A stretch of 56,921 nucleotides of DNA, filler included, from Porpidia crustulata (GCA_964255105.1; 3 parts of 3 records of this genome joined end to end with filler, not necessarily neighbours in it); one strand, 5' to 3'. Counted from the first letter of the whole stretch, positions 1 through 38,019 are shown. A program made the numbers and translations. Notes: a model not told the origin generated them from the letters alone.

Positions 1-146
1 GGGATGGGTTTGTGGCTTGTTGTGTGGCTGTGTTTGTGGCTGATTTTGTGGCTGGTGTGTGGTAAAAGGTAGGGAAAAGGGAGGAGTGATGGGGAAGTAG
101 TGGGTAAGGAGAACAATGTGAGGGAGGGGAAGCAAAGTGTGCTTAC

Positions 147-3100
147 TGGTTTTGTAGGCAAAGAGGAGATGATCTTGTCCATTGACAGCCGCCGCTCTGG
201 ATACATTTCGGCCCGGCGCACATCAAGTACTGTTGGTGGCGAAAGCCAGGAGTTAGCGTGGTTATGCTTTCGACGCAAAGCACAGGTAAAACATTCAAAT
301 CTTGAAATAGAATGAGCGGCAGACTTACCTCCAGACTCAAAATCAGTGGGACCATAGAAGCTCAAGATCGCCACTGGAGGCTTCAATCCTGCCTCTTTAC
401 TCGTCCACGCCGTTGTCATGGCCAAATGCCCACCAGTCGACCACCCTATCACCACAATTTTCTTCTCATCAACCAAAATACCTCTGCTCCTCACGGTAGC
501 CTGCAAGCCCGTTCGTGCCCATGCGTAAGCGTCGCAGGTATCCCTGATGGGACCGTCGAGGAGGTTGATTTCGGGACAGAGTCTGTAGTCGATACTGACG
601 GGTAGCACGTTGTGGGCGAGAAGGAAGGCAGTCTGGAAGGGTCGAATCGCTTTTCTGGAGAGCGTCATGTGCCCACCGCCGTGGATCATGAGTGCTAGAA
701 GCGGAAGGGTGAGTTAGCAGTGATGCGGTGGAGCGATGTTAAGGGGATTTGTGGCACTAATTGGGAGATGAGTGTGTACCGACAGGCATGGCTTTTGTGG
801 AAGCCTGGGCAGGCAGGTAGATGTCTGCCTCGATCTGAGTGCCGTCTACTTCTTTGTACACTACTGTCTGTATGCCGAGCTGTTTCTCATCATGGCGCAG
901 GGGTGCAGTCACCTTTTCGTTGTTGGATGCCACAAGCAGTCGCTGCGTATTGGATTCTGGAGTTGGGCCCTGCGAATACGATATTCTTTTGAAACCGGCC
1001 TGCTCGAAAGACTGTACCCATGATTCTGGAGGCTGCAGAGGGTAGGTCGACCCGTCATTCGCGAGCCACCAGCCATCAAGCAGCCCGAAGACGATATCGT
1101 ACCAATCGACCAGCTGCGTTACTTCTGAGAGCACCATGAAGCCTTGCGCATTCAAAATACTTTTTAGTCTGCTGATCGTTTTCGTCTTGGCCTTCGTCGC
1201 ATGCACGCAGTTGGTACCGATAACGATGTCGTATGTATCCTTGAGCGAAGCGGGCATGTCGGTTTCCAGATTCAAGGTCTGAAACTCCATCCAGGGGCAC
1301 TTTGCGAATTTTGCCTTGGCGCCTTTCACGAGCGAGGGAGAGATATCGGTGAACTTGTAGGAGACGGGTATGCCGCTTGCTTCTAGTACCTCGGCGAGCC
1401 GCGTCGTTGTGCCGCCGAAGCCGGCGCCTACTTCGAGGATTCGTACGGGGTAGGCGCTGGACGTGGTGCTGCTGGAAGATACGACGGTGCGGAGGAAGGC
1501 TACTAATTGTTCCGTTAGGGTCGATAGCATCGGCGAGGCGCAGTAGTAGTCTTCCATGACTTTTTGGGCTGCGGCGCCACGAAACATGAGGGTGATGGGA
1601 TCGGTCTTGCCGGTTAGACAGTCGGCTAGTTTTGGGCCTGTCAAGGCCATGAGTCGAGCTTCGCCAGCATACGGGGAGAATTTTGTAACGAATTGCTCAT
1701 GGAGCTCCTGAGATGATGTGGATGGCGTCTGTTTGCTGCCGCGGATGAGGGCTGATCCCTGCCTGGCCAAGATGTCATGCTTCTCGAGAATGTCGAGCAG
1801 TCGATTCATCACCTTTTTGTGTTTCGGCAAATGAGGAATCGAGGGAACTTGTTGGCCTTTGGAAATTTGACCAATGTCTGAGCCTAGGGCTTGAAACGCC
1901 TCGCATATGTATGCCAGTAGCAGCTCGTCTTGCTTTGGAGCTACTTCGGTCCAGTAGTTCAGGAACCCACGTCTAGCAGCCGCTTGGTCGAAGGATGCCT
2001 CGCATTGAACTAGCGCTTCCATGGGACTCGCCAACTCGACCCCTTTGCCTTGCCCCTTCTCCACTTGAATCATCTTCTCGGACCCATTTGCTTTGTCCTG
2101 ACCTGCTAGACTTTTGGGCCCTGCGACGGCTGCTGGCGAAGATGCTCCCTGGGAGGCACCTCCCACTCCCAAGAAATCCAAGATTTCCTGGACAGTAGAC
2201 TCCAGGGTGAATCTATCGTCTTCGATTTCGATCTTAAACGCGTCCTCGAGATCGCCTTTAAGCTCAATCGCGGAGAGTGAATCGATACCGAGTTCTTGAA
2301 GGGTGGCTTTGCCATTAATAGAGGCAATGGGGGCTCCTGAAGTCTCGGAAAGTAACTTCATAGCAATTTGGTGGGCTTGTGTGTTTTGTGGGCTAGCATT
2401 GACGTTGGATGAGGGCGAGGATGAGGTTGACGGTGGAGTGGGAATTGCAGTCCGAGACCCAGAGATATTGGAAGTAGGAAATACCACTTTCTTGGTCGAG
2501 CAGAAAGGGACGAGCAGTTCCGAGAGAGCTCCGTAGCTGCTTAAAAGGAGATCCTCGGCAGCAACCTCCTTGCCAAAGTGTGTCTGAAGCTCTTCTGCAA
2601 GTTCAACGGCGGCTAGAGAATCTACGCCTAGGTCGCCGATGTTGGCATCGTTCGCTATATCCGCAGGGGAAAGGCCTGTATAAGTAGCAATGATGTTCCG
2701 CAGTCGCTTTTCAGCGCCATCATCGACAGCCTCTGGTGTTGCGATTCCGTCATCGCTATCGATTGATGTTGCACTACTGCTGTTGTCTAATCCGGGTGGG
2801 GTCTCGGTACCTTCGACGGACGTTACTGTGGATGTCGTCTCGGAGGACTTGACTGGTACCGATGGGAGACTTTGGTTTCCTGTGGTACTCCTTTGGGACG
2901 GCTTTGCGTTAGCAGAGTCTAGGAATTTCTCAAGCTTCGAGATCAAGAGCTTGGTGAATTGTGCCCCTGTAATTATCATGGCTAGGGCTCCTTGACGTGT
3001 CATGACGAAAATATCGCCTGCTGCTTGGCCATCGCCCGTGCTTGTATACTTTGTGTAGACGGTCCAGGACCTACGGTTGTGGAAGTCGCAAGCTGGGGAC

Positions 3101-6100
3101 ATCGAGACGTGGTCGACTCCTGTTGCGACGTAGACGTCTTCGCTGGTTACCAGGTTGCTGCTGTTGATAAGTAGGCCCACGACCTGGATAAATGTGTCGA
3201 TAGCTACGGTATCACAGTATTGAGTTACAGTGCTCTCTTCGAAACCAAACTGGGCTTTTTCTGGGAGGTCGATATTGGCTATCGCCTCAGCCTTGTCTAG
3301 TGTAATGTGCGAAATCCCTTGGAGGAAGTCGGCGTAATGGACGACTTGGGAGAACAAGCCGTAAGCCCGGTTGGACATCAGCTTCTCCGTGTTTGGCTTG
3401 CTCTCTAGCTCACTAATACTGTACGCGATGAGTCTCTCGTATGTTCTGAAATCAGGCTGTGGTGTCAGCACAATTTTGCCCTTGGCATGCGTTGAGGATC
3501 TTGTTTTTGAGCCGGTCGTGGAAGAACTTTTGATCACGAAGCTCCATGCTTGCGAGCCGTTGCACTTTTCAAGCGTCAGGGAAGCCTCTCGATCGTGGTC
3601 GACGCCTAGAGCTGCCTGGAAGGACAGGTCAAGGAAGCAAAGAGTACCGGCTTCCACATGTCCTCTGAGCAGCTGCACTCCCATTGCCGCGCATTCCATG
3701 TACATTGATGCTGGACAAAGTGGTCTTTGTCGAACCGCGTGGCCAGACACGATCTTGGTAAAACGCTGTGTTCCTAGGGAAATGTTGAATTCCCTCGAAT
3801 TTTCGTTCTTGCTCGCACCTTTCCCAATATTCACCAGTCTTATGAGCGCCTTGGGCTCTTCTTGATTCTGTGTAATCGTTACCTTTTCCACTACGGCGCT
3901 TTTCTGGGCCTCAATGACCCGATCAACGTTCTTGAGCCAATGCTCGGTTGGTTGGAATTGATACGGTGGGAGCCAGATTTGTTTATAGGATCTCGCTCTT
4001 GGCGGGAGGAAGCTCCAGTATGATACCGGGATTCCTTCACGCCACAAGTTAGTTGTCACGTTTGACATTAACTTCATAGGCGCCTGAGAATCTGACGTCT
4101 TTATAGCCTGAAGAGAATGATCATCTGGCGTGGCCAAGGCTCTTTTGATCATTGGGATGATTGGTGAATCCATACCAGCCTCTAGCCAGATGCAGGGGCC
4201 AAGTCGTTCCTCTATTCGCCGAACAGCGTCTGAGAAATATACGGGTTCTCGCGCGTGCTGAGAAGGTCTTGTTGCTGATATTGGGTTAATCGGCTCCACA
4301 GTACAGGTTTCTAGGGGAATTTCCGGCTTAGAGTAGGTCAGTGATGCGGACAGCTGGCTAAGATCCTCGAGAATGCCTTTCGTGAATTTCGAATGAAAAC
4401 CATGAGTGACACTGAGGCGCTGGCTTCGGGTGCCGGAGAAGCGCGGGTCTTTATTCAATAGACTTTCGGTCCGATCAATGGCGAGGGAGCTGCCTACTAC
4501 GACCTGGCTTGATGGAGCGTTGTAGCATGCGATTTCAATTTCTGGCTCTGCTGAATCCGCGCCGACACTGGTAATCACGCCTTGCACAATTTCACGACTG
4601 CTGTGAATTACAAGCATGGTCCCCTTTTCTGAACCCCATTTTGTTGCCATCAACGATGCCCGTGATGCGATGAGCTTGAGACCGTCCCTAAGTGAGAGTA
4701 CCCCTGAGACCACCATGGCCGTCAACTCACCAAAGCTGTGGCCGATCATTGCATCCACCCGGAGACCTGCGTCAATCCAGCATCTGGCGCACGCGTATTG
4801 CATGGCGAAGGTGCCACATTGTAGCGTTACCACGTCTGTCAGCGGCTCTGACTGGAAGATAGAAGGTAGGAGCGTGGAAAACCCAAGGTGTTGGACAATC
4901 GTGTCGCATTCATCGATGTAGCTTTTCAAACGAGGGTGAGACTCATACAAGCTTTCCTCCATGTTGATGGTTGTTTTGGTTTGCCCTCCAAAAGCTAGGA
5001 CAACTCGCTTTGGCGTTTGTGGCACCTCAAAAGAGGATTGAGCCTCGTTTTTAAGATTCTGTGCCAAGTTGTTGATGTCGGACGTAGACGTTACAAAGAC
5101 TTGCCGGTGAAGCTTACGTCGCTTGCTTAGTGTGAATGCTAGATCGCCTAAACTGGGCTTTGGCGTCTTCTTTTGGAGGTATTGACCCAGAACTTCGGCA
5201 TTTGCGTACAAACTTTCTCTTGACGCCGCACTTATGATTATCGGGTACGTTGGTTCGGCCTCAGCTGTCGTAATCTGCTTGGATCTGTCTATTCTCTGCG
5301 GAAGGCCTTCGCAACATATCATGGCGCAGTTACTCCCTGCCGCCCCATAACTATTCACGCAGGCCGCCAACAATTGGGCTTCCCAGCGGGTGGCCTTTGA
5401 TGCAATCATCATTCTATCTACTCCTAAAGCAGGAATCTTGGGGTTGAGAGATTTGTGACTCGCCTGAGGTGGGATACCGGCATTATTGATCATGGCGAGG
5501 ACCTTGAGCAGACTGGCTACACCTGCTCCAGTCTCTGTATGACCGATGTTACCTTTGAGAGAGCCAATGTTCAGCAGGTCGGTTCGATCTTGCCCTCCAA
5601 ACACTTCGCGAATACTTGCTATCTCTAATGGATCTCCGGCTTGAGTGCCTGTCCCATGAGCCTCGACATAGGAGACTTGGTCTGGCTTCATACCAGCTTG
5701 GCGCAAAACGGTTTGATAGAGTTTCTTTTGCGCGGCAGAATGCGGAATCGTAATTGAGGAAGACAGTCCCCCCTGATTTGTCGCTATGCCGGGAACGACA
5801 CCGAGAATCTGATCGCCATCTACCAATGCTTGACGAAGGAGCTTCAAAACAACCAATCCTCCACCTTCAGAGCGACAGTAGCCATCTGCGGCTTGATCAA
5901 ATGGTTTGCATTGACCTGTAGGACTCAGAAATCCGGCTTTGGCCAGATCCAGGAAATTGTTGATGCCGGTCATGATGTTAATGCCTCCTGCAAGAGCCAT
6001 GGTACATTCGCCTGTTTGAACAGCCTTGCAGGCTCGGTTAATTGCAACCAGAGATGATGAGCAAGCTGTATCTAATACCTCAGAGGGACCACTCCAGCCG

Positions 6101-7803
6101 AAATAATAGCTTATTCTGCCACAAAGGAAAGCCCTGATTGTACCCGTCGAGGTATATGCTGTTGGTGGATGGGCGTTTGTGTTGTCGAGATATTCCGCAA
6201 AGCTAGCGCCGATGAAGCATCCAACTGAATCTCCTGCTTCGCGCCGGTGCGAAGCCAGGTACCCGCTTGATTCCATGGCTTGGTAGGCAAGTTCAAGGAG
6301 TACGCGTTGTTGAGGATCCATGTTTAAAGCTTCTTTGGGATTGGTGCGGAAGAATGCATGATCAAAATTACCGACTTGATCAATAAAATTGCCGTAGAAT
6401 TTCCTCTTCTGGGTAAATTTGAGGTCCTGAGATGAACGGAAGCTCCCATGCAAATCGAATCTGTCCGTGGGGACTTCCGCATGTCGCGAAGTACCGCTGG
6501 AAATGAGATTCCAGAGCTCCTCCATGTTGTCAGCTCCAGGTAGGCGACAGGAAGCGCCGGTGATTGCGATAGCATCTCTTGGGTAAGAATAGCCATCTTC
6601 CAATCTATTTTTCCGCTCCTTGTGCGTTGTTTCTGCTACAAAGGACTGCACATCCACCTTTGTGATCTGGAGCTGAATTTTATGAAATGGGGATAGCGGA
6701 ATGCAGTCACCAATTCCAAATGTCGCAAATGTGTGAGTGCGACGTCCGGACAAATCGAGGTCCTTGGCCAGCTCCGAGAGGAGCGTGTACCATTCGCACC
6801 GTGACGCGAGGATTACATTAATTGATTCGTGGGTGAGCGAACCTTCTGTTATCAGACCACCAGTCTTATTAGACCTTACCGGAACTTGCAAGCTGGCGGC
6901 ATCAGGAAGCCGAAGGATGTTGGTCCTGTCGCACAGCTGGCACAGCTCGAGGGCAAGTTCGGAATTCTCGGGGTTGTGCACTTTGCCTCGAATGTGCATT
7001 TCTTGCACGAGTAAACCCTGCTCTCGTGCGTAAGATTGGAGCTTGAGGAGGACCGGCACTGGGCCGACAATGCTGATTGTTTTCGGGTCTGTAACTGCGG
7101 ATATGTATGACTGTGCGCTTTGTTAGAATTCTATATTGTGATGGAAGTTATGAGAAAAATATGTATTCAAAGAACCCACCCCGGGGAACTTGTCAATCAA
7201 CTCATCTCCCTGGCCGACCCGCTTGGTGCGAACAACAATGGTCGTTGCTCCTGGCATAGATTCGTCGTCTCCTAGTTCGCCATAAGTCCCGATTGCAAGA
7301 GCGATTCGCGCGGCTATTGCCGCGTTCTCTGCCACTTCGGCTTCGTTTTCAGAACAAGCAATTGCCATGGCTGGTAACAAACCACCGCAATACCCCTGAA
7401 TACCACCCCCAGCTCGGAGCTGCGCCATAAATTGGGAATGTGACATCCCATGGAGCTCTAAATACTGAAAGTACTGGCATATTTGGATCACAACGAGCAG
7501 TGGAAGCGATAAGATTCCAGACATGCAGTTAGCAATTTGGGAGGATCGTCCAGTGGTGATCCATTCTGATAGATTCTGCATATATCGGAGGCCTTGGCCC
7601 AGATCGGCAACATCCTGACGTTTATTGGCGAGAATGGTCCATACGTCTTTAAGGTCGAGTATGTTTTGTACAAAAGGTTCGAGATACGTATTGGAGCGGA
7701 GGAAGGAGTGTAGTTCGCTGAGATAGCTCTCCCCAGGAGCTTTACTTTGCGGACAAAATACCGCTACAGAGGCCGTTTGGTGATTGTTTGGGCTGGCCGA
7801 CAT
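147..7803 (-). CDS. Non-reducing C-methylating iterative type I PKS (SAT-KS-AT-PT-ACP-ACP-CMeT-alpha/beta hydrolase); 3' end lies beyond the left edge of the window
   Basis: Exons approx. 7803-7180, 7110-780, 694-329, 229-147, with GT..AG introns. Motifs: SAT GYCGG; KS DTACSSS, EAHGTGT, KGNIGHTE; AT GHSFG; PT GHAVRQRPLCPASMY; two ACPs LGVDSL and LGIDSL; CMeT ILEVGAGFGGTT; C-terminal hydrolase ALMIHGGGH...VIGWSTGG. Confidence 0.96.
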
Positions 7804-8576
7804 TGCCGACGTTGGTGTGTTGTTGAAACCTGGAATATTTGGAGATGTTGTGGTTCCAGTGGGGTAGAGACCAGGCGAATGTTCACGGTCTCTTTTAATT
7901 GGAGGTTTAGGAACAGACTGCCTTTCTAGGATGTTGATTCGCAGTTATTCAAACTTCTGTGCTACTTCTTTCGAAGTATAGATACAACACCGAGATTTGC
8001 TGCACCGAATTCGGCGGTGCATCGGGCCTTGGATCTGCGTGTTGCATAATTATCGATATAGCTCAGTATACAGAAACTCCGGCCTCAATTTCGGTGTGAA
8101 AGGATGCTGTATATCCTGCATTAGTGTTCGGTGGGTTCAGCGCATAATGTGTTTCATTCGGAGCTTATTGAGAGTTGTGGGTCCCTAAGATTCGAACGCT
8201 GCTTCCATGTAGGACATACCGCGATACCTTGTGAAGTATCATCAATCTTTTGCGAGTGAGTTCGTCTTTATAGATGTTCGCTTAGATCACAACCTCCTGT
8301 GAGGGCAATTTTTGACATTAAGAGGCGTTCCTTTCTGGGTCTGCGATTCTAGAAGAATCGGACAATTCTTGACCATAATTGAAAGGCTCAGTTATACCGT
8401 CAATACAAGCGAAGGTGCAACTGGATTGGAGTCTCTGGCTGCGACGTATCTTTCATACAACATCACTAATCAAAGTACCCTTTTTGAATTGCATGGTGCG
8501 GTTTCCATAAAACGGTTCGAATTCTGTGGTTTCTATTCTCTGGTGATGGTGCTGAAGACGAGCTAGTTTTGAGACA
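7804..8576. promoter_or_regulatory. Divergent (bidirectional) promoter of the PKS and P450-1, rich in CGG/CCG triplets
   Basis: 773 bp between head-to-head ATGs. TTCGGTG or its reverse complement occurs at 8003-8009, 8090-8096 and 8127-8133. An imperfect palindrome, tgcaccgaattcggcggtgca, lies at 8001-8021. Confidence 0.55.
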
Positions 8577-10330
8577 ATGTTGACACTTTCCGACATGCCT
8601 TTTCCATGGCCAATCTCGGTCAACCAAATAATGGGCACTTCCAGTGCCATCTTGGTTCTTGTAGGTATCTGCAGAAAGATTGACCACCACAGAGAAGGCT
8701 GAGCCAAATCTTCAGTATTATGTTATCTCCGCCATCTACAACATCTACTTTCACCCATTATCCAAATATCCTGGACCAAAGATGACAGCAGTCTCACGCT
8801 TACCTCTCATATACTCCACAATAACGGGAGATACATGGCGGTTCACTGGCAAGCTCCATGCGCGACATGGACCGATAGTTCGGATTGCTCCCGACGAGAT
8901 TGCCACTACATCCTCAGGCGCGTGGAAGGACATATACACATCAAAGCCGCTTATGCCAAAGGATCCATTCAGCCAGACGCCACCCATGAACGGAGCTGAA
9001 TCTCTCTTCACCGCTGCAGGTGAAACGCACCACCGTATTCGAAAAACGTTCATCAACGCCTTTTCTGATAGAGCATTGAAGGACCAAACCCCGATAATCG
9101 ATTCTTACGCCAATCTCTTGATGATACGGCTTCGCAGAGAGATCGGAAAAAGTCCCGAGGGTAAAGTTGACATGGCTAAATATTATGGATACGCGACTTT
9201 GGACATCATTGCAGATCTTACTTTTGGTGAATCTTTCTATGGCTTAGAGGGTGACAACGAACACTCCTGGATCCTGGGCTTCTTTCTCGGCGCAAAATTT
9301 GGCTCTGTGAGAAATAGTCTTAGTCGTTTTCATCCCATTGACAAGATTTTCGGGTGGATATTCCTTCGGTTGACAGCCAAGAACAGGGCGCGCAGCTGGC
9401 AAATCGCGACAGGAAAAATCTCACGTCGACTAGAAATGGGAGATTTGGGCCCGTCAAGATCGGATTTTATTACGCCTGTTGTTGGGAGGCTGGACGAGAC
9501 GCAGCAAAAGGGCATCACGAGGAAAGAACTGAACACTAATGGGCTTGCCGTCGTCATTGCTGGGTGCCAATTGACGACTGTGGCACTGGCCACCGCCACT
9601 TATCTTCTAATGCGCTACCCTGAGACTTTGAGGCAGCTCACCGAAGAGATCCGGAAGAGCTTCGAGTCAGAGACCGACATCACCATTCCTTCCACTGTAA
9701 ATTTACCATATCTTACGGCTGTTATCAATGAGACCCTACGCATCCACCATCCCACGCCTATCAATCTTCCGAGGGTTGTCCCGCCGGAAGGACAGATGAT
9801 TGATGGGCACTGGATTCCTGGGGGGGTCAGTGCATCCTTTCTCTTGCATCATCCATTTCGCTGCATGTAAAGAAGATACACAGCCGCTGACCTAGACCCA
9901 GAACATCATTGGCGTAAATTTGCAAAACATCCAGAACGATCCGAATAACTGGGTGGAGCCTCGTGTTTTCCATCCTGAAAGATTTCTTCCCGAAAGTGAT
10001 TCAAGATACCAGAAGCGTTTCGATCACGATGATAAGCAGGCGTTCCAGCCGTTTTCCGTGGGTGGGCGGAATTGTATGGGAGGAAAGTAAGTGGCGATGA
10101 GATGACTTACAGCGCATTGCATTTTCCGGTTGTTTTGTAATCTTCGTGAACTGATATTTGATAACAGGGTTTTCCTCGCAGAGGCAAGATTGATTCTCTC
10201 GAAGATGGTCTGGAACTTTGATCTCGAGATAGTTGACCGGAACGATTGGAGTTGGATGGACCAAAAGGCTTATCTCGTCTTCGAGCCTAGAGCGTTGATG
10301 GTCAAGCTAAAGGAAAAGGCTTTGGCGTAG
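8577..10330 (+). CDS. Cytochrome P450 (P450-1; Tri11/CYP65-like appearance) with an atypical I-helix
   Basis: Exons approx. 8577-8660, 8716-9825, 9902-10086, ~10168-10330. Motifs: FHPLSKYPGP, ETLR (ExxR), HPERF, heme loop FQPFSVGGRNCMG. The I-helix reads IAGCQLTT. Confidence 0.93.
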
Positions 10331-11861
10331 GATTGCGGGTGATAAAGCAGATATTCAACATACCGGCCGAACCTGCTTTTCTTTGCATTTGAATACTGTG
10401 AGGGCTGCACGGTCATGAACTTAAAGCCCTTGTGCATTTGGCAATTCGATGCTATGGTTCTCTATCATTGGACTGACGCGGGGGCATTTAGATATTAAAA
10501 GTCTGCTGTGCAATATTTAGAGAGAGCAGACCTGTGTCAGAGACCACGCTCTCTGTACATATGTGTAGCTTATTTGAGTTCTTGTAGTAAACTGTTACTC
10601 CAAGACGACGTGAGAAGATCATTTAGGCACACTTCTATCCTTCAGAGTAGCAGTGAGCACGCAATCTTGCGAGTATCAATCCATCATATGCATCATATAT
10701 CGGACTCTTCAAGGGCGCCTCCAAAACTTACAAGCTTCAATGGCACCGTAGCGCAGAAGCTTACCGCAATGTATCTCATCAATACATTGACTCAACTTAG
10801 TTGCATGAGAGCTCCCTAGTCCCGTAAAAAGTATGTACCTCTTCAGCAGCCTTCACTAGAGTATGGCTCTTCTAATCGGAATCACGCAGTGAAGGTATTT
10901 CGAGCCGCCATCGATTTCATAGCTATGAGTAAACCCCTTGCAGCGCGCTTTCGAGATTGGGTGCTGTGGGTTCGGTGGACATTACGCGTTCAGGGTCTGT
11001 ATTGCTGTATGCGTGACGACGCTTGACGGAGACATAGTGGAGCGACAAGGCCTTGCAGTGTAGAGCTGTAGACGTAGATGAGAGATAGGTCAGAGGTGTA
11101 GGCCGTGTTCAACTAGGATGAAATTAGTACGTTGGCAGTGTGGCGGTGTCCGCCACATGGGGCTGGGGGCGCTAGCAGGGTTGTTCACGCACTCTCAGCC
11201 CTCCTAACAAAAACAACTACATAAATGCTTAATTCGTGCTTCATATTTCAATCCCTGGTACTGTAAAGTCGCTCCTAAAAAGCACCTGCCTATCCAATTC
11301 TACAATGCCGTGAAGTTCACTCACGATCCTTGGGCTGAAAATATAGGCGCTTCCTACCTGCCGGGGGCGCAAGAGACGTGCGATGCGGTCCAACAGGGCT
11401 GGAAAAAGTAAATTTTGCTCTGACTGGGAGAAGTAGAGACAACGAGGTTTGGATCGAATAGATCAGAGCCTCTATGTCTGGTAGATGCGTGACGCTGAGG
11501 GTTATACCCGAGAAGGTGTATCATCGGTATACTCGAGACGGATCGCGCATATGCAAGACAACATGCATCTTTTTTCATTCGGACGTACAATCGGGCCATT
11601 TTATCTGCCGAAGTATCTCCTATCTTGGCACCTTGGACGACTCCGAGTCGAAGCCGAACAGCGAAGATCTATGATCAAATATCTATTACCAAATCATACG
11701 AATTGTTTCCCTTCACATATCGCTAGCTACACGCTAACATGCCTCAATGTATTTCCTGATGAATTGATATCTCGCATCTTGTTATTGTCTATATTACTCG
11801 TCTACATAGCGAGAGCGGATCGTAAGCCTCTCGGTCTTATTGATATAGGGTTAGTAGCACT

Positions 11862-13622
11862 ATGCCAGCCGTTGATCTTCTCACCGTTTGGCCGGTGACG
11901 ACCGCCGCTATCTCTATCTCCCTCTACGTTATCCTCCTATACACCTATCGCCTCACTCTCCATCCACTTGCCAAGTTTCCTGGTCCACGCCTCGCAGCGG
12001 TGACTTTCTGGTTTGAGCTCTACCATGACTTTTTCCGCGGTGGTCAATACCTTTTCCGCATCCGCGACATGCACGCCAAATATGGTCACATCGTGCGAAT
12101 CTCTCCCGATGAGCTGCATATCAACGATCCTTCTTTCCTTCCGGAGCTGATGCCCGCCGGCGGACGTCGCAGGGACAAGTATCCGCGTATGATACAAGTG
12201 TTTGGCTTCTCACAGGCTGCCGGCGCCACGGCTGATCATGACTTGCATCGTACACGGCGGGCTGCGATGTCAAAAATGTTCTCGAAAGAGTCAGTGAGAA
12301 GGCTGGAGCCGATTATGAGGACGAACTTGGATAAGTTGTTGGTTCGGTTGAAGGAGTTCCAGGATGATGGGAGGGAGATCAGCCTGTTGCCCATGTTTGG
12401 AGCCTTTACTAATGACGTAATTTCCGAATATGCATATGGCTTCAGTCTGAATTGGATCCAAGCACCACAGTTTAATCGAGTCTTCTTTGAAATGGTTGGT
12501 AGCAGAAGTTATATACTTGATCTTGGCGGCTGAAAGTGTTCCAGATTGATGGTTTCCATGACCTTGGGCCTCTTGCAGTCCAATTTAAATGGTTTATGCC
12601 GCTCTTCGCCAGGCTGCCTCGGTGGCTAGTATTGAAAATAAATCCCGGTTTCGGAACCTTTATAAAATTCAAATTGGTAATCTCGGCGGCTTGATTGCTT
12701 AGTTGACAATGCTAAATTCTTGGCAGCAACTGCTAAGCAACATTGCTAGAGTCGCAAAATCCCATTATGAAGGGAAGGATAATAAGACGGTGTTTGATGA
12801 AATCTTAGATAGCAGGTTATCAGAGGAAGACAAAAAACCGCTCCGCTTACTCCAGGAGGCCCAGAACTTTTCGATTGCTGGCACAGAAACCACATCTTGG
12901 ATTCTGAGCGTACGCCATACAATATTGAGGTCCATTTCATCTTGCGAAAGCTGATTATAGTCCCAGATCATGACCGTCCACCTTCTTTCCACCCCAAGGG
13001 TCCTTACAAAACTAAGAACCGAACTCAAGGCTGCCCTCCCCGACGTCTCCGCCCCATTGTCAATTAGGGATATCGAACAGCTGCCATACCTTAGTGCAGT
13101 CATCACAGAGGGCCTCCGCCTCGCACTAGGTACCAGCCAGCGCCAGACGCGCATCAGCCCTAACGAGGTCATGACTTACAGCGACGGCGAGAAGCAGTGG
13201 CCTATCCCTATTGGCGTGAGTATCGCCCTGCCGTTTCCAATTCCTATACATGGACTTTCTGACCAGCGCTTCAGACACCCGTCGGCATGGCCGCGCCCCT
13301 CATCCATCATAACCCGGACGTCTTTGCAGATCCCATGGAGTTTCGCCCTGAGCGCTTTATCGAAAACCCACAACTGAAGCGCTACCTAATGACGTTCTCA
13401 CAGGGGTCTAGGCAGTGTCTGGGAATGCAGCTGGCGTACACCGAGCTTTATCTGCTCCTGTCGGAGATTTGGCGCAGGTTTGGCAGTAAGGAAGATCATG
13501 GAGAGGACGGCTGGTGGGAATTGTTTGAAACGGATCGAAGCGATACTGATATGGCTTCTGACCGGTTCGTGCCGTATCCTAAGGCGGACAGCAAGGGTAT
13601 TCGGATAAAGGTGTGCAAATGA
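11862..13622 (+). CDS. Cytochrome P450 (P450-2; Tri4/CYP58/CYP682-like appearance)
   Basis: Exons approx. 11862-12494, 12545-12676, 12727-12909, 12967-13215, 13275-13622. N-terminal TM helix plus LHPLAKFPGP, I-helix IAGTETTS, EGLR, FRPERF, heme loop FSQGSRQCLG. Confidence 0.93.
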
Positions 13623-15066
13623 AGCAGGATCAATGAAACAGTGATTCTTGGTGCTGTCTTTACCATAGATAGCCAAGTAGCTTAAATAATTCAGTGCCAT
13701 GATCTCATGGTCAACCTTGGCTGATACTCTGTACCAAACGTGAAATGTGACACTAATAGTTTCAATCATCTTTATGGTGAAGCATCGATATCTTGAGAGA
13801 TAATCTAGTTAGCCGTTGGCCAAACCAGGAAGAAATCTCATCTTGGATTTCCATGGTGGCCTTGTCGGCCTTCTCCCATAGCTGTAGGAGGTTTGAAAGA
13901 CTGTCAAGTACCCAGAATCAAGAAAGACGTGTGTCGTTTGTGAGGGGGATACAGTTTGAAGATCGAGAGGGAAAAGTAAAGCTTGAGACAAAGACGGTCT
14001 ACGCCACCATCCATTACGTGAAGTTGACAGGTTGTGGACAGGCGGAGGACTCTCCGTAAGTACTAGAGGGTAAGTAGGCAGCCTATTCTTTCCTCACGAT
14101 CTGCACCTGAATTGCCAATGTAATTCAATATTTCACGCTGTGGGATGTAGTCCAAAGACGATATGATAGGCTACCTCCTCCGCTGCCTCCTCATCGATCT
14201 TGCCACAAAAAATCATTGCAAGACCTCGCTATCTATCTCGTCGATAAGATCCTCGATATCTCGGTCTCCCTATCCGTGCTTACCGCCAAAATTTTATTCC
14301 GATCCAGCTCGAACCTCAAAACTCTCTTCATCCGCATTACTCTTGCCAACGTCTGGGATATATATACGCCACGGCTGCCGCTGTCACTGGGAATCAGAAA
14401 AGATGTCTAGAACAATACAAGTGATCTTGACATGCGGTCTAGTAGTGTGTTGCTATTCTCCTACCTTTTGCCCTCATCATTAATTGATTTCATACCATTG
14501 AGCTAATATGTTCTACATATACACACGTAAATTTAGCGGAGATCGAGAACGTGACTTGCTCTAGTGGTGATGATGTTTGGAGCAAGGTGTTCATGATTAT
14601 AATACTGCTTTACTGTTTACTCGTTATCGGAGATATGCTCCGTTGCTGTCCATTTGCTAAGGAACGTCGGATGGAGGAAAGATGATTTGGGTGCTCTGTC
14701 GAATATCCTTGGGAGAAAAGATAGAGTAGGTAAAGCGGTTATCGTATTTACCTGTGTGCTTGAGGGAGGCAACACCAAAGGCGCAGATACTAAAGAGGGT
14801 GATCACGTCTATAGTGAGTTAGCTTACTCTATCGGTCCATTTCTCGTAAAGAAAATAGTTTATAAGAAGTTGAAGAAGTATGGGTAACGGAGGCTACGAA
14901 TGGATTTTTCCAATCTAGGAGTGGCTATCGAGAACACTGATGCGTATTGCCCTTCGTGCTCATCGAACTTGATCAACGGGCGTGAGTCCGAGCACCTTCC
15001 TTTAAATGGTTATGGTTTCTTTGTAGAAGAAACAGAGTCGAGCAAATTCTGGTGGACTAAAATGCC

Positions 15067-16624
15067 CTAAACAGTGTCATGCCCTTCCCAACTAGCCTCG
15101 ATAAACGACAGTTGAGAACCAGGTGGGGTTTGAACCCCAAGAAATTGAAATCTCTCGTCTGCTTCCCGAAACAACTCGGCCCAATCGTCGCGTCCGCGTT
15201 CTTTCGAGTTCAGCATGGCCATCATGCCCAAGTCAGATGTTCTATAAATATTGGTCAGTGCATCTAACACGGGTCGTAGTCGCAAATGCTTGCAGAGAAT
15301 AGGAAACTGACCGCGTTTTCTTTTCCAGAGTGAACGGGAGAACGTTGGGCTCGGGTAAGCATATATCGCTAATTAAGATTCGTGCACCATGTTTGAGCGC
15401 CGGTATCAGGCATTTAAGTATTTTGATTGAGTACTTGTCGGACCAATTGTGGAAGATTCGGCAGAAAAGGTAGACATCTGCCCCTTTAGCTACCCTGTGT
15501 GGCTCAGTGAAGAAGTCATGCGCTGCAAATATGACGCGAGATTTGAGATCGGAACGAATCTTGGCTGGGCCGTCGGCCACAACTTCCGGGAGGTCCAGTA
15601 CGATACAATTAAGAGATGGAAATCTTTCGGCAATGGCTATGCCACGGGTTCCATGCGATCCTCCCACATCAACGACAGTTCCTTCGCCAATGGCACCCCA
15701 AGGATAGTGGTCAAGTAGAGACGATATTGCTGAGCCATTTCCAGATTCAAACGCAGTCATGGCGTCTGCGAAGCGTTTTGCGCGGGCGGGATCTGTTCCG
15801 AGCTCTGTAAAGAATGGAACACTGGTATTTTTCGCAAGAGCAAATCCCTACCATAGAATCGTTAGCCGCTAAGATACCAACAATATAGATGGTTGAGCCC
15901 TACCGTGTGCTCTGGCTCCTGGGATCCAGGCCAACGTGCCAAAGCATCAACAGTCTGCCAAACAGATTAATGGATATTCTAGAGTTCGAAGTAGACTTGG
16001 CTGCCTCACTCGTGCTGCTGCAGGCCATGATTCTTCGCATATCATTCCGACCCATGCATGCAACATCGGGTTCTCCATTAGTAATTCAGAGGCTGCTGTA
16101 TGGGTCACTATGTCGTTGTGCTCTTTGAATATGTGATTGGTCATGGAATGACGCATTATCCGGCGTAGAGTTGATTCATCCAATCCGCATCTACTAGAAA
16201 TTTCCGCATAGGATGCTTCCCCAGAGAAAGATTGAGCAATTTTAAAACGATAGATTGCTTGGAGGCTGACAAGGTCCATGTACTAAAATGTTCAAGGGGT
16301 TAAATTCGCACTTGTTGTCATGGGCAGTTCTCACACCATTAAGGCACTATGTCGTAGCATCGCCACTGGCCCAAGCATCAAAGCCTGGAGCTCTGAAACT
16401 GCTTCAAGTACGACAGTCTGAGCTCCTTGGAGTTCTTCCGATGGTGGCAACATTGCGAGCGTTGAGGTATCGAATGAAGGTGCAGGGAGATTGTGTGACA
16501 CAAGACATTCCTCAAATTTCTTTGTGCTAGCCAAAATCGTCGAGGCCAAGTCCACGATTCTAGAAGACGCCATACTGCTGTTGCCGTTGACTAAAGTCTT
16601 TGGACCAGAGATTTCTGATAGCAT
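15067..16624 (-). CDS. SAM-dependent O-methyltransferase (Methyltransf_2, OmtA/AflP-like)
   Basis: Multi-exon gene. N-terminal LPAPSFD region and winged helix (LRRIMRHSMTNHIF), SAM motif VVDVGGSHG, AHDFF, RIFHNWSD, C-terminal DLGMMAMLNSKER. Start is either 16624 or 16573. Confidence 0.92.
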
Positions 16625-16800
16625 GATGAACAAAGTACAGCTTGAAGTAGACACAATAAAGAGAAAATTCTAATATCCTAGAAGATCAACCTACGCCTCA
16701 GGGTAGAGAGTGCCGCAACAAAACAACAATAGCAATAAATGACAGATTGATTCAGTATGGCTTGGACCTCTGAGGCCAAAAAAAATACTCCGAATCCATT

Positions 16801-16828
16801 GTGGATCGAGTTTTGTGGATCGAGTTTT
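16801..16828. repeat. Perfect 14-bp tandem duplication (gtggatcgagtttt x2) upstream of the O-methyltransferase
   Basis: Read directly from the sequence. Confidence 0.85.
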
Positions 16829-17057
16829 CGGGGCTATAATCCACCGAACTCAAGGTAAGTAAAACACCAAATCCAGACTTTTCGGCACCGGATTTCCATC
16901 CGACCTAAGCCGAACGTAGGTCCTATGAGTCGATCAAATTGATCAAGAGCGCATCAGGTTCGATGTATGGACAGCTAAGAAGTCGGGCTGGCGTCTCGCG
17001 ATTGTGCGGCAGAGAAGGAAGAATCTAAGGAAAGTCCGAAAGAAAGTTACATGCTTA

Positions 17058-17144
17058 TTCTTACCCCCCCAACGGACCACCATAACCCTAAATTAGTGAG
17101 TCCAGCCCTAACCCTAGCACGGCTGGTCCGTTGAGGGGTGAGGA
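17058..17144. repeat. Short inverted-repeat element (MITE-like) with internal CCCTAA hexamers
   Basis: Left arm ttcttacccccccaacggacca pairs imperfectly with right arm tggtccgttgaggggtgagga. The interior contains taaccctaa and ccctaacccta. Confidence 0.6.
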
Positions 17145-17962
17145 CTAGTAAACGTAGCCATATACCATTTTCATTTTGACATTATGACCACTCACATTTT
17201 ATACCCGCAAGGAAGTCAGTACAAAACATAATAGAGGCATATGAAAGCAGAGATTTGATAGCAGTGACAGCGATGTCCCCGCAACAATAGCTCGGTAGTT
17301 TGATTTGGACGCAAAGTCGCGAGATGGCAGATATCGTAAGTGTGAGCCCTCCTCAAGGCAGATGCTCGTCCTAAAAGTCTTTAAGAAGATCTCGATACGT
17401 ATACAAGCACCTTTTTACGCCAACAACTCTTCGGCGGCTTGATAGTGCTTTCGAAGATTCAAACCGTACCAATGAGGTATCACAACGATGACCAACCATG
17501 CCCCACATTTCCCACGCTGCAGCCTTGCCCATGAAATCCATTTCGGGGTGTGCTTTGTGGCCCAATAACATCTTTGTAGGTCTTTGCTCCGAACTGCCGA
17601 CCTTCTCCGCATGCTCAGAATTGGGGCAGTGGGACTTCGATGCTTGATCCTTTTACTCGGAAGAGAGAGTTTATCCTTGGCGTTACACTGCATCTTGAAA
17701 CGCAGGGAGTACTTCGGCTGTATAACAAAACTCAATCAGCAGCTGTTAATGTCTAATACCAGGTATATATGAATGGTTTCCTTTTTTGGGTGCTGCCTGA
17801 TTCGAGAACAAGCTTATATCCTTTGTCTTAACTCATCTGCTTCATTTATTACGAACAGCTTTACTTCCTCTTCATTTACTTTTACTACCTTCCATCACGC
17901 AATTTGATATCTAGGCTTTGAACCTGTCATTAGGATTATACTCTAAAAGATTTGTTTCTACT

Positions 17963-18914
17963 ATGTCTTCTACTACTGTAATAGAAACAATTACAAGTAC
18001 TCCCACTACCTATGGCAGGCTACGATATATTCCGGCTGGCTACACCCCTATGCCTATACAACAGCCTTTTGGATTGCCTGATATCTCCGAATATGGCGAT
18101 GCACGTGTTATGCCATTGCACGATATGCGCCCAATTCCAACCGTTGATGAACTTCCAAACGCCAAAGATGGGACTGCAAAACTCTTAACCCATGGGTTTA
18201 CAGCAGTGAAACATCCCTCTGTCTTGCATTCGGCCCCCTACACTTCCGCAAGTTGGAATGATCCGGAGCTTCTTCAAGAAATCTATGTTTCTGAAGTCGA
18301 AGAAATGTTGAAACGGATAACAGGCGCTAAAACAGTAATCACTGAGACTCTTCTCGAACGAGGTACCCCCAAGAGCGGACAAAACCCTAGCGCTGCCAGT
18401 ACTGGTCCTGATCAAAAAAATCCGACCAAGGAAACACAAGCTGAACCCCTGAAAAAACCTCAAACCCCGTTCTCACCCCCCCCCAAAAGGTCCACGTTAG
18501 CTAAGTTTGGCCTACCTCAAATCGTCGGGTTCTCCCCCGCATTCGGTGGTATACCACCCGCTCCTAAGGTCCACCTTGACTACGCTCCGGCTGGGGTTCG
18601 CGCCCACATCCGGCAATTCAATCCTGCGATGACTGCCGCATGTGCCCCCATCATCGACGCCGAAGATCACCTCCTTGCCGCCAACCTTCCCCTCGACGCT
18701 CACTACTCCACCTCCCCTGCTGCTCCCCGCTGGGCCATATACTCCGTTTGGCGGCCATTGAAACCGGTGAGACGCGATCCGTTGGCCATGTGCGACACTC
18801 GCACTTTTGCAAAAGAAGACTATGTTTTAATCGATGTACCTGCGCCAACCATGGACTCTGACGGGTCGGTGAAAGAAAAGCACATCATGAAGGCCTATGC
18901 GGGTAGAGGGAGTG
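17963..18914 (+). CDS. AsaB/CmcJ/GA4-desaturase-like oxidase (putative Fe(II)/2-oxoglutarate-dependent), 3' truncated by the assembly gap
   Basis: Family-typical segments LLTHGFTAVKH, YVSEVEEMLKRITGAKTV, PAPKVHLDY (HxD) and RWAIYSVWRPLKPVRRDPLAMCD. Confidence 0.8.
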
Positions 18915-19014
18915 NNNNNNNNNNNNNNNNNNNNNNNNNNNNNNNNNNNNNNNNNNNNTTAATTAATTAANNNNNNNNNNNNNNNNNNNNNNNNNNNNNN
19001 NNNNNNNNNNNNNN
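18915..19014. other. Artificial assembly linker (N run + TTAATTAATTAA + N run)
   Basis: 100 nt; the central 12-mer gives stop codons in all six frames. Confidence 0.97.
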
Positions 19015-20916
19015 GCGCTTCCGTTGGACTTCTCCGTTCTTGGGGAGTTTTGGGGAGGGTGGAAAATTCGCTTTTTTGGGAAGGCGACTTCGCTCTCTTC
19101 GCCGAGTCGATGAACCAATGTTTGATGGATGCCAGTTGATTGATGAAAGCGTGCTGATGCCGTCGTCTAGCCCGCACTGTCGAATGGCCGTTTGGAGGTG
19201 CTAAAAGATCTGGATTGGGATATACCAATTGGAGCGTGCTGCCACGTGATCTTCTCCTTTCTTTAGGAGGCGGAGCTGGTCGATGTCGGGAAGAGTTCCG
19301 GGAGCGGACTGGGTCCTTTTCTATAGGCGGAGGTGGAGTAGGTGATCCCGGTGATCGAAGAGTAGAACCTTCTGGCAGCCGAGGAAGCTCTGGCAGGATA
19401 AGTTGAGGGGTCGATAGACTACGCCTCTCACGTCTCCCTCTACTTCGTGATACATCAGCATTGGGTGAACCAAGTGCCTCTTCATCTACTTCTTTCAAGG
19501 GCGCAGCGATACGCTCGAGTCGACTGCTAGCTGCACTGATCCTTCGCATACTTTTGGTCTCAGCTTCTCGTTCCTTGCGTTTTCGCTCCCTTCTCTTTTC
19601 CTTTCGTTCTTCTTTTTCAATCAATAGAGCCCACCATCCAGCCAAAGCATCACATCGTTGAGCAAGCACATTTTCGATTACTCTATCTATGTCAACTCCA
19701 GCGCTGCGCATCCGGTCTAATGTATCCTTTTCCACACTCGTAGTGAACGGCAGTGGTTGAGTAAGCTTTAAAATCGCTTGCTGTTGAGGTGCATTTTCCG
19801 CCAGAAACGGACTGGTCAAAATGTCTGCTATTGTAGGACGATGAAGCGGCCTTTTCGATAGCAGTTTCGTGATCAACTCTTTCGCGTCTGGAGGTAGTGA
19901 GTCGGCGTATTTGGGCTCGCTACAGAGAATCTTATGTTTTGTCGTCATATCATCATCATCGTCGAACGGAAGCTCGCCGGTTAACAGCGCATACAGTATA
20001 ATACCCAAACTCCAAACATCGACCTTCTCCCCCGCGTACTTTTCGCCTCTGAGCATCTCCGGTGCACTGTAACATATTGTCCCGCAGAAAGTTTGAAGAT
20101 AGCTGGCTTTGCCCTCATACTCACGAGTAAAACCAAAATCGCAAAGTTTCACATTTTCCGATTTGTCTAGTAGTATATTTTCCAACTTTAGGTCTCTATG
20201 AACACAGGACTTGCCATGTACATAAGCCACAGCTCCGACAAGTTGCGTGAATATCTTTTGCGCCTTTTCCGGTGGTATTGGTCCATTGCGGAGAAGGTAG
20301 TTGTATAATTCATCACCTATAGCATTCAGCAGGGGTTCAGTATTTTAGATCAGTTGCTCAAGTACCAGGACAGTACTCCAAGACAAGCCAAACCAGATTT
20401 TCCGTTACGATTACTTCGTACAATCGAGCAATATGGGGATGCAGAAATTGCCTGTGATGATGAATCTCTCGTGCGAGGTTGGAATCGTCCTTCTTCGCGG
20501 ACTTGAGTACCACCTGCAGATGTGTTATTTTTTGCCGTTTTGTCGATTGATCTAAGACCTCTACCTTAGATCCATTGGTGAGCTTATGTGACGCAAGATA
20601 GACTTTGCCAAATGATCCCTTGCCTATGAGGCGGCCCAGTGTGTAATTTCCAACGGAGCGTAATTCTTTGGAAGAGAATTCTCTGTTCGGGCAAACAATG
20701 TCACTACCGATTCAGGGCATTCAGGATGAAAGGCTTACTCTAGAAGGTCATGATAGGAGTTGGCAAGCTGGAGTGAATTGCCATAAGTCAGCAAATGTTT
20801 ATCAAAGCCGTGCGGTCAGCATTGCGCTCTCCGAATGCGCTTGAGCAGTCATACAAACAGGCACTTACCTTGGCTTTCTGTTCTTGCAGCTCAGCCTTGG
20901 TTTTGACAGCCGGCAT
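19015..20916 (-). CDS. Ser/Thr protein kinase, CAMK/AMPK-related (Ppk16-like); C-terminus cut by the gap
   Basis: Short 5' exons give MPAVKTKAELQEQKAK-LANSYHDLLE-...NYTLGRLIGKGSFGKVYLA. Then HRDLKLEN, CDFG, FCGTICYSAPE, DVWSLG. Confidence 0.92.
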
Positions 20917-21438: not shown

Positions 21439-22520
21439 CTATAATTTGATCTTTCCTTGACCTCCATCATTCCTATCCATGTTCCGCTCCGCGCCAAGCA
21501 CCAGTGCTACATGCTGCGATAATGCCACCACATCCCCACCCTCATCCATAACTACAACCTCGAGGTCCATCCTCCCATTCCTTATAAGTTTTGACCGCAC
21601 CCTTACAAACAACCACTCTGCACCTTGTGGAGGAAGTGCCTTTTTCACCTCAACGTTGAGCAAGAGGGTCGGATACCAGAAACGAGCCCATTGACTGCGA
21701 TCGAGCTTTGATTTGGGAGCTGGTTTTGCCAAGATCGATGGAGACTGCAGGCTTCCAGGACTAGCTGCTTGTTCCATTGCTTTCTCTAGCTCTTCAGGGC
21801 TGTATCTCTCTACTATCTGTGGGAACGAGTCCACGACATACCCAAGCGACTCATTGGTGAATCGCTCGCCCTCCTTCTCGAAACAAATCCATTCGTCCAC
21901 GAGCGCCTGCGCCACAGGCCTCCGGGGGAGATAGATTTTAGCATGCCGAGAGACTTTGCGGAAAGAGGCAAATGGTTTCGGATGCAGCAGGACCCAGTTC
22001 GGATCCGTGTTCGCTCGCAGGGCTGCGGTCGACTGGAGAGGAAAAGGCGGCGGTGAAAGTAATTGTGGTGTCTGGAGAGAAATTCCAGATTCAAGAGGCA
22101 GATTTGACTGGGTGAGATAGCCAACGACGCATGGGAGGTTATTCGGAGGTCCCGAGAAGAGCGTAACATGAATGGTTGAAGTGCGACGGCCAAGTTTCGA
22201 ATCCTGCACCACGATAGTTACTGGGCCAATCGAGGTACGTCGAAGGAAGGTCAGGTAGAGGGTTATGGTATGCGGCTGGTTCTGAGAGGACAGTGTTGTG
22301 CTGAAATGCAAGCTCGCGGTGGAGAGGATGCAGGAAGTCACGAAGCCGCCATGGGGAACTGTAGAGCTAGGTAAACACAATGAACCCAGCGATTGTGGAG
22401 GTTATAAGGTGTTTTACCACTGCCAATGGCCCACTCATCGGGGAGAACGGCAGAGTAGCTATGTGAATCTATAGCTTTTACAGCTGTGGCTCGGGCCAGC
22501 GTGCTCAGTGGCTCTGCCAT
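21439..22520 (-). CDS. Acyl-CoA thioesterase-like protein (double hot-dog fold)
   Basis: One intron (~22360-22417) joins DEWAIGS to VPHGGFV. Also FLRRTSIGP, WYPTLLLNVEVKK, NGRMDLEVVVMDEGGDVVALSQH. Confidence 0.85.
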
Positions 22521-22911: not shown

Positions 22912-26196
<3,285 letters not shown>

Positions 26197-37919: not shown

Positions 37920-38019
37920 NNNNNNNNNNNNNNNNNNNNNNNNNNNNNNNNNNNNNNNNNNNNTTAATTAATTAANNNNNNNNNNNNNNNNNNNNNNNNN
38001 NNNNNNNNNNNNNNNNNNN
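37920..38019. other. Artificial assembly linker (N run + TTAATTAATTAA + N run)
   Basis: Same 100-nt structure as at 18915. Confidence 0.97.

Follow-up and report, generated by a model that had tools for sequence, protein, structure and literature searches.

A probable PKS1-family ('dsd') beta-orcinol depsidone gene cluster of type IV gene content in Porpidia crustulata

Which lichen compound is made by a non-reducing polyketide synthase (NR-PKS) that shares its contig with several oxygenases and a methyltransferase? This question is raised by the beginning of a 56,921-nucleotide stretch of DNA from Porpidia crustulata (GCA_964255105.1; hereafter the window, filler included), for which a preliminary description had listed five biosynthetic genes at positions 147-18914 and had suggested, as their candidate product, a stictic/psoromic-type depsidone bearing O-methylation and further oxidation. 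All five genes were found at these positions, four of them by Pfam matches and the fifth through the NCBIfam model NF041278, and they comprise the NR-PKS, two cytochromes P450 (P450s), a PF00891 O-methyltransferase and a CmcJ/NvfI-type oxygenase. We consider that the contig probably holds a PKS1-family ('dsd') biosynthetic gene cluster for beta-orcinol depsidones from a lichen-forming Lecanoromycete, with the gene content of type IV (dsd1, dsd3, dsd2 and dsd7) and with dsd8 in addition. The kind of system is already known, the contig adding one more member to a cluster family reported in 2025.

The PKS1 family, dsd1 to dsd11, was described in November 2025 as the source of beta-orcinol depsidones (Kim et al., New Phytol 2025, PMC13062703). 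Briefly, dsd1 is pks1, dsd2, dsd3 and dsd10 encode P450s, dsd4 a regulator, dsd5 an aldo/keto reductase, dsd6 an FAD oxidase, dsd7 a PF00891 O-methyltransferase, dsd8 an NF041278 (CmcJ/NvfI) oxidoreductase and dsd9 a major facilitator superfamily (MFS) transporter, to which dsd11 is added (PMC13062703). In the same work, an intron-less pks1 of Cladonia rangiferina expressed in Aspergillus oryzae gave 4-O-demethylbarbatic acid, the dsd3 product of Parmelia closed the depsidone ether and hydroxylated C-8, and the further addition of dsd6 led to virensic acid (PMC13062703). The earlier statement that such pathways are largely uncharacterised enzymatically is thus outdated by this paper. Clusters that combine dsd2, dsd3 and dsd7 are classed as type IV; they are associated with (nor)stictic acid and are described from Sclerophora, Letrouitia, Xylographa and Usnea (PMC13062703). 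It is the match of our contig to this type, with the PKS, the divergent P450 and the O-methyltransferase each tied to genomes listed there, that supports the product class proposed at the outset.

Positions 1-18914 of the window are one complete assembly contig of 18,914 bases, set off by an artificial linker at 18915-19014 (N44 + TTAATTAATTAA + N44), in which TTAATTAATTAA provides a stop in all six frames. The PKS ORF of the window is itself recorded in the protein collection, with 18914 as the length of its longest contig. The contig start cuts the PKS gene in its fourth intron and the contig end (18914) cuts the CmcJ-type gene. To model the genes, we aligned the DNA with relatives of full length and placed introns at GT-AG boundaries; the resulting models are predictions made from the sequence only. 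Among the sequencing runs listed for this stretch none is of RNA, and one of DNA type contains it and may be its source. Once these introns are removed, all visible frames are open (2468, 507, 514 and 423 amino acids (aa), and 317 aa for the fifth gene). As none of the 17 intergenic open reading frames (ORFs) of the contig has a Pfam match (0/17), we take the contig to contain these five genes only.

The dsd1/pks1-type NR-PKS gene occupies 147-7803 on the minus strand, with its ATG at 7803, and the homology-guided splice model has four visible exons (7803-7180, 7110-780, 694-329 and 229-147) separated by GT-AG introns of 69, 85 and 99 bp. The last visible exon ends with position 147 and is followed at 146 by a GTAAGC donor, with which a fourth intron begins; the remainder of this intron is off the contig. 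The visible protein contains no stop; homologues extend about 150 aa further in the release domain, and about 150 C-terminal residues of the hydrolase consequently lie off the contig. Three complete introns and the donor of a fourth agree in number, the only aspect compared, with the four introns given for PKS1 and for PKS23 genes (PMC8262933).

Pfam matches place the domains of this synthase in the order SAT-KS-AT-PT-ACP-ACP-CMeT-alpha/beta-hydrolase, which agrees with the order SAT-KS-AT-PT-ACP-CMeT-TE of the core NR-PKS in the PKS1/dsd family, and thereby bear out the architecture given in the preliminary description. From the N-terminus, all on the minus strand, these are the SAT domain (7279-7728; PF16073, E 6.8e-12, residues 73-222 of ORF P0002) with a GYCGG stretch, the KS domain (5458-6573; PF00109, E 6e-76, and PF02801, E 7e-34), the AT domain (4195-4965; PF00698, E 7e-23) with GHSFGE, the product template or PT domain (2947-3387; PF14765 PS-DH, E 3e-8, residues 1246-1392) and two tandem ACPs (2224-2706; PF00550 in two stretches, the best at residues 1473-1536, and PF23297 at residues 1588-1633) carrying LGVDSL and LGIDSL. 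The KS domain contains the stretches DTACSSS, EAHGTGT and GNIGHTE, which we take to be KS motifs. The ACPs are followed by the CMeT domain (982-2004; PF18558 HTH_51, E 1e-25, and PF08242/PF13489), which also matches the solved CMeT structure of the citrinin synthase PksCT (5mpt, E 1.3e-76, residues 1720-2069), and by a release domain of the Abhydrolase_3 type (147-692; PF07859, E 7e-15, profile positions 2-120 of 210) in which HGGGH and GWSTGG are present; the latter domain is split by the 99-bp intron (328-230) and truncated at the contig start.

The main PKS exon was used to score 8000 candidates, and lichen fungi supplied the best matches among those with a name. Full-length identities are 83.5% to Letharia lupina (P0007), 78-79.5% to three Xylographa species, 64% to Icmadophila ericetorum, 63% to Letrouitia, about 60% to the 'BcPKS16' proteins of Botrytis and Monilinia (B. 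aclada 60%) and about 53% to Dothideomycetes. A KS-AT tree was built with FastTree on 115 rows, namely the window sequence and 114 of 119 matches (P0066, P0071, P0078, P0084 and P0110 were left out for a short KS-AT match, as was P0004, the window's own ORF); it is rooted at the midpoint only, and besides the window its rows are unnamed or species-named matches, none of them labelled as Atr1, MPAS, PkbA, MpaC or AusA. Letharia and the window PKS share a clade of 40 rows (support 86), with the Xylographa clade next to it, and both are nested in a 96-row clade (98*) with 13 named rows, all bearing names that we take to be those of lichen genera. Botrytis, Monilinia and Dothideomycetes form another clade of 19 rows. 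Letharia, Xylographa, Icmadophila and Letrouitia are all genera listed with pks1 clusters, the first two being filed under PKS1 types III and IV (PMC13062703). On the basis of these species lists and of the identities, the synthase would belong to the PKS1 clade and not to PKS23 or PKS8.

The second element is the gene that faces the synthase. A shared intergenic region of 791 bp (7804-8594) separates the divergent start codons of the PKS and of a P450 of 507 aa (8595-10330, plus strand; PF00067; homology-guided model with exons 8595-8660, 8716-9825, 9902-10086 and 10168-10330), whose heme loop FQPFSVGGRNCMG is intact. This protein is 88.6% identical to P0124 of Lobaria immixta, 86.4% to P0126 of Xylographa opegraphella (the tag of which adjoins that of its PKS), 71.8% to a protein of Lecanora helva and, over the full length, 58.2% to MollD (P0184) of Ovatospora. 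For comparison, a published Dsd3 is 57% identical to MollD, dsd3 is transcribed divergently from dsd1, and Atr2 of the atranorin pathway is the closest relative of Dsd3 (PMC13062703). Being divergent from the PKS and MollD/Atr2-like, the first P450 has the features expected of dsd3, and we assign it to this gene by homology. The locus tags of the PKS and of the first P450 are adjacent in five named genomes, X. opegraphella (MMC26_001471/1472), X. pallens (MMC27_005956/5957), Lecanora helva (ACLMJK_000005/4), Gyalolechia gomerana (Q9188_002428/2427) and Letrouitia sp. 1 (Q9214_000753/754), and two apart in a sixth, Botrytis aclada (EAE96_010883/10881), so that the pairing is more than chance. 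The link between P450s and the depsidone ether that had been suggested is hence retained for one enzyme, the demonstrated ether closer being the MollD/Atr2-like Dsd3 beside the PKS.

The other P450 of the contig, a protein of 514 aa encoded at 11862-13622 on the plus strand (PF00067; model guided by P0364, with exons 11862-12494, 12545-12676, 12727-12909, 12967-13215 and 13275-13622), also has an intact heme loop, FSQGSRQCLG. It is 91.4% identical to the full-length representative P0364 and 71-92% to a few fragments, while over exon 1 the other full-length representatives reach at most 48% and everything else at most 49%; identity to the Dsd3-type P450s is only 27-28%. In the ESM Atlas, P0364 falls in generic P450 clusters only. 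By elimination from the published cluster types, we presume that this second P450 is Dsd2.

The feature that distinguishes type IV is the O-methyltransferase. The Dsd7-type gene lies at 15067-16573 on the minus strand and encodes a predicted protein of 423 aa (PF00891, E 6e-22) from exons 16573-16337, 16282-16010, 15954-15904, 15847-15312 and 15241-15067. The third of these is a micro-exon of 51 bp (15904-15954) encoding TVDALARWPGSQEPEHT and flanked by introns of 55 and 56 bp; a model with a single intron at this place silently loses it. Full-length identity is 76.4% to MMC27_005952 of X. pallens (P0246) and 66.7% to both X. carneopallida (P0244) and X. opegraphella (P0245); over the main exon the corresponding values are 82% for X. 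carneopallida MMC34_002564, 80% for X. opegraphella MMC26_001466 and 74% for X. pallens MMC27_005952. These three Xylographa proteins are the only close named relatives, the next match reaching at most 55% over the main exon. The same main-exon search returned 0 Letharia matches, as expected, since Letharia is a type III genus. The published dsd7 was itself taken from X. carneopallida (PMC13062703), and to judge by these identities the O-methyltransferase of the contig is orthologous to those of Xylographa and corresponds to the dsd7 that defines type IV.

The surroundings of this gene vary. In X. opegraphella and X. pallens, the O-methyltransferase shares a contig with the PKS, from which its tag is five and four positions away, respectively; the first P450 is on the opposite side of the synthase. 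A metagenome search with the O-methyltransferase exon gave 27 loci, of which only two, L001 (1088-2680) and L002 (1241-2803), hold close copies (83-84%). The neighbourhoods of L001 and L002, to which we return below, are in keeping with the reported reshuffling of PKS1 tailoring genes. As to synteny in relatives, which had been named as a check, the pairing of PKS and first P450 is thus kept in five genomes, but the O-methyltransferase is rearranged in Xylographa and neither of the two metagenome copies retains the neighbours found here.

The last gene, directly beside the O-methyltransferase, begins with an ATG at 17963 on the plus strand and stays open to the contig end (17963-18914), where its 3' end is missing. 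It has no match in the Pfam copy searched; the truncated protein scores 77.9 bits (cut-off 80, E 9e-22) with NF041278, the same NCBIfam model as the published dsd8, and it also matches the solved 2-oxoglutarate-dependent dioxygenase 7eus (E 7.5e-10) and NvfI (E 2e-3). The Fe/2OG-type oxidase of the preliminary description has to be corrected in that the protein probably belongs with the CmcJ/NvfI family (dsd8), to which the published description gives no role. An H-L-D stretch lies at 18572-18580, and the distal His would be expected beyond the truncated 3' end; we take a metal-binding triad His-x-Asp...His to be the hallmark of the family. Positions 18363-18500 are of low complexity and could represent either an insert or an intron that keeps the frame; none of the in-frame GT...AG candidates (78, 96, 102 and 138 nt) is favoured. 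ESM Atlas clusters for this protein carry PF27522 'YDMC', a family absent from the Pfam copy searched, at 0.92-0.94, which we regard as a lead only.

Compared with the published PKS1 type IV clusters, our contig thus has the same PKS architecture, a divergent Dsd3-type P450, a second P450, a PF00891 O-methyltransferase and a probable NF041278 gene, with identities to the Xylographa proteins of 78-79.5% (PKS), 86% (first P450) and 67-76% (O-methyltransferase, full-length). It differs in its order, which is PKS, dsd3, second P450, O-methyltransferase and CmcJ-type gene with all tailoring genes on the P450 side, whereas in two Xylographa genomes the O-methyltransferase is 4-5 genes off on the far side, and in that dsd4, dsd5, dsd6 and dsd9 are not seen before the contig ends.

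If the assignment to this cluster family is right, the NR-PKS would start from acetyl, add three malonyl extensions, C-methylate through its CMeT domain and cyclise by a PT-controlled aldol reaction to give 3-methylorsellinate units, two of which the hydrolase-type release domain would esterify into the depside 4-O-demethylbarbatic acid, as shown for the Cladonia rangiferina orthologue. The divergent Dsd3-type P450 would then close the diaryl ether to the depsidone and hydroxylate C-8, as for its Parmelia orthologue, and a dsd6 FAD oxidase encoded off the contig would convert the alcohol to the aldehyde, that is to virensic acid, as its orthologue does. Beyond this point the scheme is hypothetical: the second P450 may act on the methyl group of ring B, oxidising it toward the aldehyde from which the lactol ring of norstictic acid is formed, the PF00891 O-methyltransferase may methylate the 4-OH to give stictic acid, and the CmcJ/NvfI-type oxygenase may add an oxidation of undefined nature. 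We infer the ring-B oxidation and the 4-O-methylation from the co-occurrence of genes and compounds and from the structures of norstictic and stictic acid as we take them to be. Experiments have so far established the pathway only as far as the aldehyde, its third step, after formation of the depside and closure of the ether with hydroxylation.

For the CmcJ/NvfI-type gene, a more definite role can be put forward, very tentatively. The dsd8 product could perform a real late oxidation in the stictic-acid chemosyndrome, for example of the ring-B methyl toward the lactol or in extra hydroxylations, the congeners concerned being presumably of the constictic or menegazziaic type; on balance we hold this to be doubtful. 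If true, it would be the first function for the CmcJ/NvfI family in depsidone biosynthesis, and an oxidation by dsd8 could explain why dsd2 and dsd5 alone failed to advance virensic acid. In the available part of the published description, dsd8 is mentioned once, in Table 1, with no role assigned (PMC13062703).

Several observations weigh against the assignment to a stictic-type cluster. Expression of dsd2 and dsd5 gave no further product, and the late pathway is called hypothetical by its authors (PMC13062703). Sclerophora sanguinea possesses dsd1-dsd7, yet no lichen acid was detected in it (PMC13062703), which means that gene content does not guarantee a product. The genes dsd4, dsd5 and dsd6 are off the contig, dsd6 being needed for the aldehyde, and the other contigs of the window bear housekeeping-type genes; indeed, none of the dsd4, dsd5, dsd6 and dsd9 families was found on this contig, which ends inside cluster genes, or on the other contigs of the window, save an MFS gene at 29450-30974. 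The choice of PKS1 over PKS23 draws on species names, locus tags and elimination, and the identification of the second P450 with Dsd2 likewise on elimination. The position of the Xylographa O-methyltransferase on the other side of the PKS, as read from locus tags, has to be added, and so have the two metagenome copies: the flanks of L001 and L002 contain neither the second P450 nor the CmcJ-type gene (0/2), and downstream of the O-methyltransferase L002 has an MFS transporter and an FAD/NAD-binding protein (5194-6608 and 6862-7485) in their stead, and no P450 of any kind.

Part of this evidence bears on the possibility that the cluster belongs to the same PKS1/dsd family and yields an end product other than stictic acid. 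The methyltransferase might act at another position, with norstictic or salazinic acid as the outcome; the product might be a different beta-orcinol depsidone that carries an O-methyl group (psoromic type); or the CmcJ-type enzyme might help to form members of the stictic chemosyndrome. The hypothetical state of the late steps, with dsd2 yielding no product and dsd8 given no role in the available part of the paper, leaves room for such products, and enzymes encoded outside the clusters are often needed (PMC13062703). Against them, the combination of dsd2, dsd3 and dsd7 goes with (nor)stictic acid in all four type IV genera (PMC13062703), and the O-methyltransferase has its orthologues in Xylographa; we therefore judge a different end product unlikely.

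We consider it very unlikely that the cluster is silent, in decay or incomplete and yields no compound in the thallus. Precedents exist in the premature stop of pks1 in Cladonia grayi and in the full cluster of Sclerophora mentioned above (PMC13062703), and both end genes are visible only in part, being truncated by the assembly. On the other side stand the open visible frames, the intact heme loops and PKS active-site stretches, and the high identities to orthologues.

A cluster of the atranorin type (PKS23, atr1-atr4; Kim et al., mBio 2021, PMC8262933), directed to a cortical depside and not to a depsidone, comes close in several respects. PKS23 and PKS1 are paralogues that share their first product, domain order and number of introns (four), and Atr2, the nearest relative of Dsd3 (PMC13062703), adjoins its PKS (PMC8262933); moreover, our PKS comparison covered unnamed and species-named sequences only. 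However, the carboxyl methyltransferase Atr3 is Trt5-like (Pfam08241), atr4 encodes an MFS pump, and the atranorin cluster has no second P450 and no CmcJ-type gene (PMC8262933, available part), whereas the methyltransferase found here is of the PF00891 type. In addition, the synthase is 78-79.5% identical to the Xylographa PKS1 of type IV, while dsd1 and Atr1 share only 54% (PMC13062703). An atranorin cluster would be recognised by Atr3 and the MFS protein Atr4 beside the PKS and P450; the contig has neither, being without an MFS gene, and carries a second P450 and a CmcJ-type gene instead. We thus find an atranorin-type cluster highly improbable.

In other fungi, NR-PKSs that combine a CMeT domain with a release domain of the hydrolase type are also sources of monomers. 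A monomeric 3-methylorsellinate (cichorine/phthalide type) or usnic-acid type pathway, which the preliminary description had kept as an alternative, can nevertheless be set aside as exceedingly improbable, given that expressed pks1 gave the depside 4-O-demethylbarbatic acid (PMC13062703), that PKS8, associated with usnic acid, is a PKS family with a gene cluster network separate from PKS1 (PMC13062703, PMC8262933), that PKS1 sits with PKS23, AscC and StbA in NR-PKS group IX (PMC8262933), and that MollD, which forms a depsidone, shares 58% identity with the P450 beside the PKS.

Two related systems lie outside the lichens. MollD, of the mollicellin pathway of Ovatospora, performs ether formation and hydroxylation like Dsd3 (PMC13062703) and differs in coming from a non-lichenised fungus and acting on a heterodimeric depside. 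The BcPKS16-type systems of Botrytis, Monilinia and Dothideomycetes have a PKS that is 53-61% identical to that of the contig with the same Pfam domain set, and a Dsd3-like P450 (60-67% identical) that in B. aclada is two tags from the PKS and in Lasiodiplodia and Bipolaris is recorded on a contig equal in length to that of the PKS; their PKSs are outside the lichen clade of the KS-AT tree, and the main-exon search gave no close orthologue of the O-methyltransferase from these fungi. The related PKS (53-60%) and the Dsd3/MollD-like P450 (60-67%) occur in the non-lichen plant pathogens Botrytis aclada, Lasiodiplodia and Bipolaris maydis, which, to judge from these sequences, may be producers of beta-orcinol-type depsides or depsidones as well.

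Lichen chemotaxonomy makes use of stictic and norstictic acids, which are widespread compounds of the medulla. As a discovery the present cluster adds little, its family, its types and the link to chemistry having been published in November 2025, and the remaining interest lies in the late enzymes. In this respect the contig offers a convenient template for reconstitution, with four candidate tailoring genes (dsd3, the presumed dsd2, dsd7 and dsd8) within 10.3 kb beside the PKS.

The rest of the window concerns other genes. The window is a chain of assembly contigs and no single continuous piece of chromosome: a second linker of the identical pattern (N44 + TTAATTAATTAA + N44) lies at 37920-38019, and a gap of 10 N at 37569-37578. 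Gene neighbourhoods across the linkers and the gap say nothing on physical linkage; likewise, since the cluster fills a whole contig that ends at a linker, the kinase gene after 18914 is not a demonstrated physical neighbour. The second contig (19015-37919) carries housekeeping-type genes, with this Ser/Thr protein kinase (19015-20711, minus strand, truncated at the 3' end where the contig begins), an acyl-CoA thioesterase (21439-22401), a P-type ATPase (23446-25818), a 14-3-3 protein (27094-27468), the MFS transporter mentioned above, which looks unrelated (29450-30974), and an amino-acid permease (35004-36557). On the third contig (38020-56921), besides several long ORFs that have no Pfam match, we found genes for a xylose-isomerase-like TIM-barrel protein (41026-42136), a hemerythrin-domain protein (45686-46375) and an RTA1-like protein (53850-54458).

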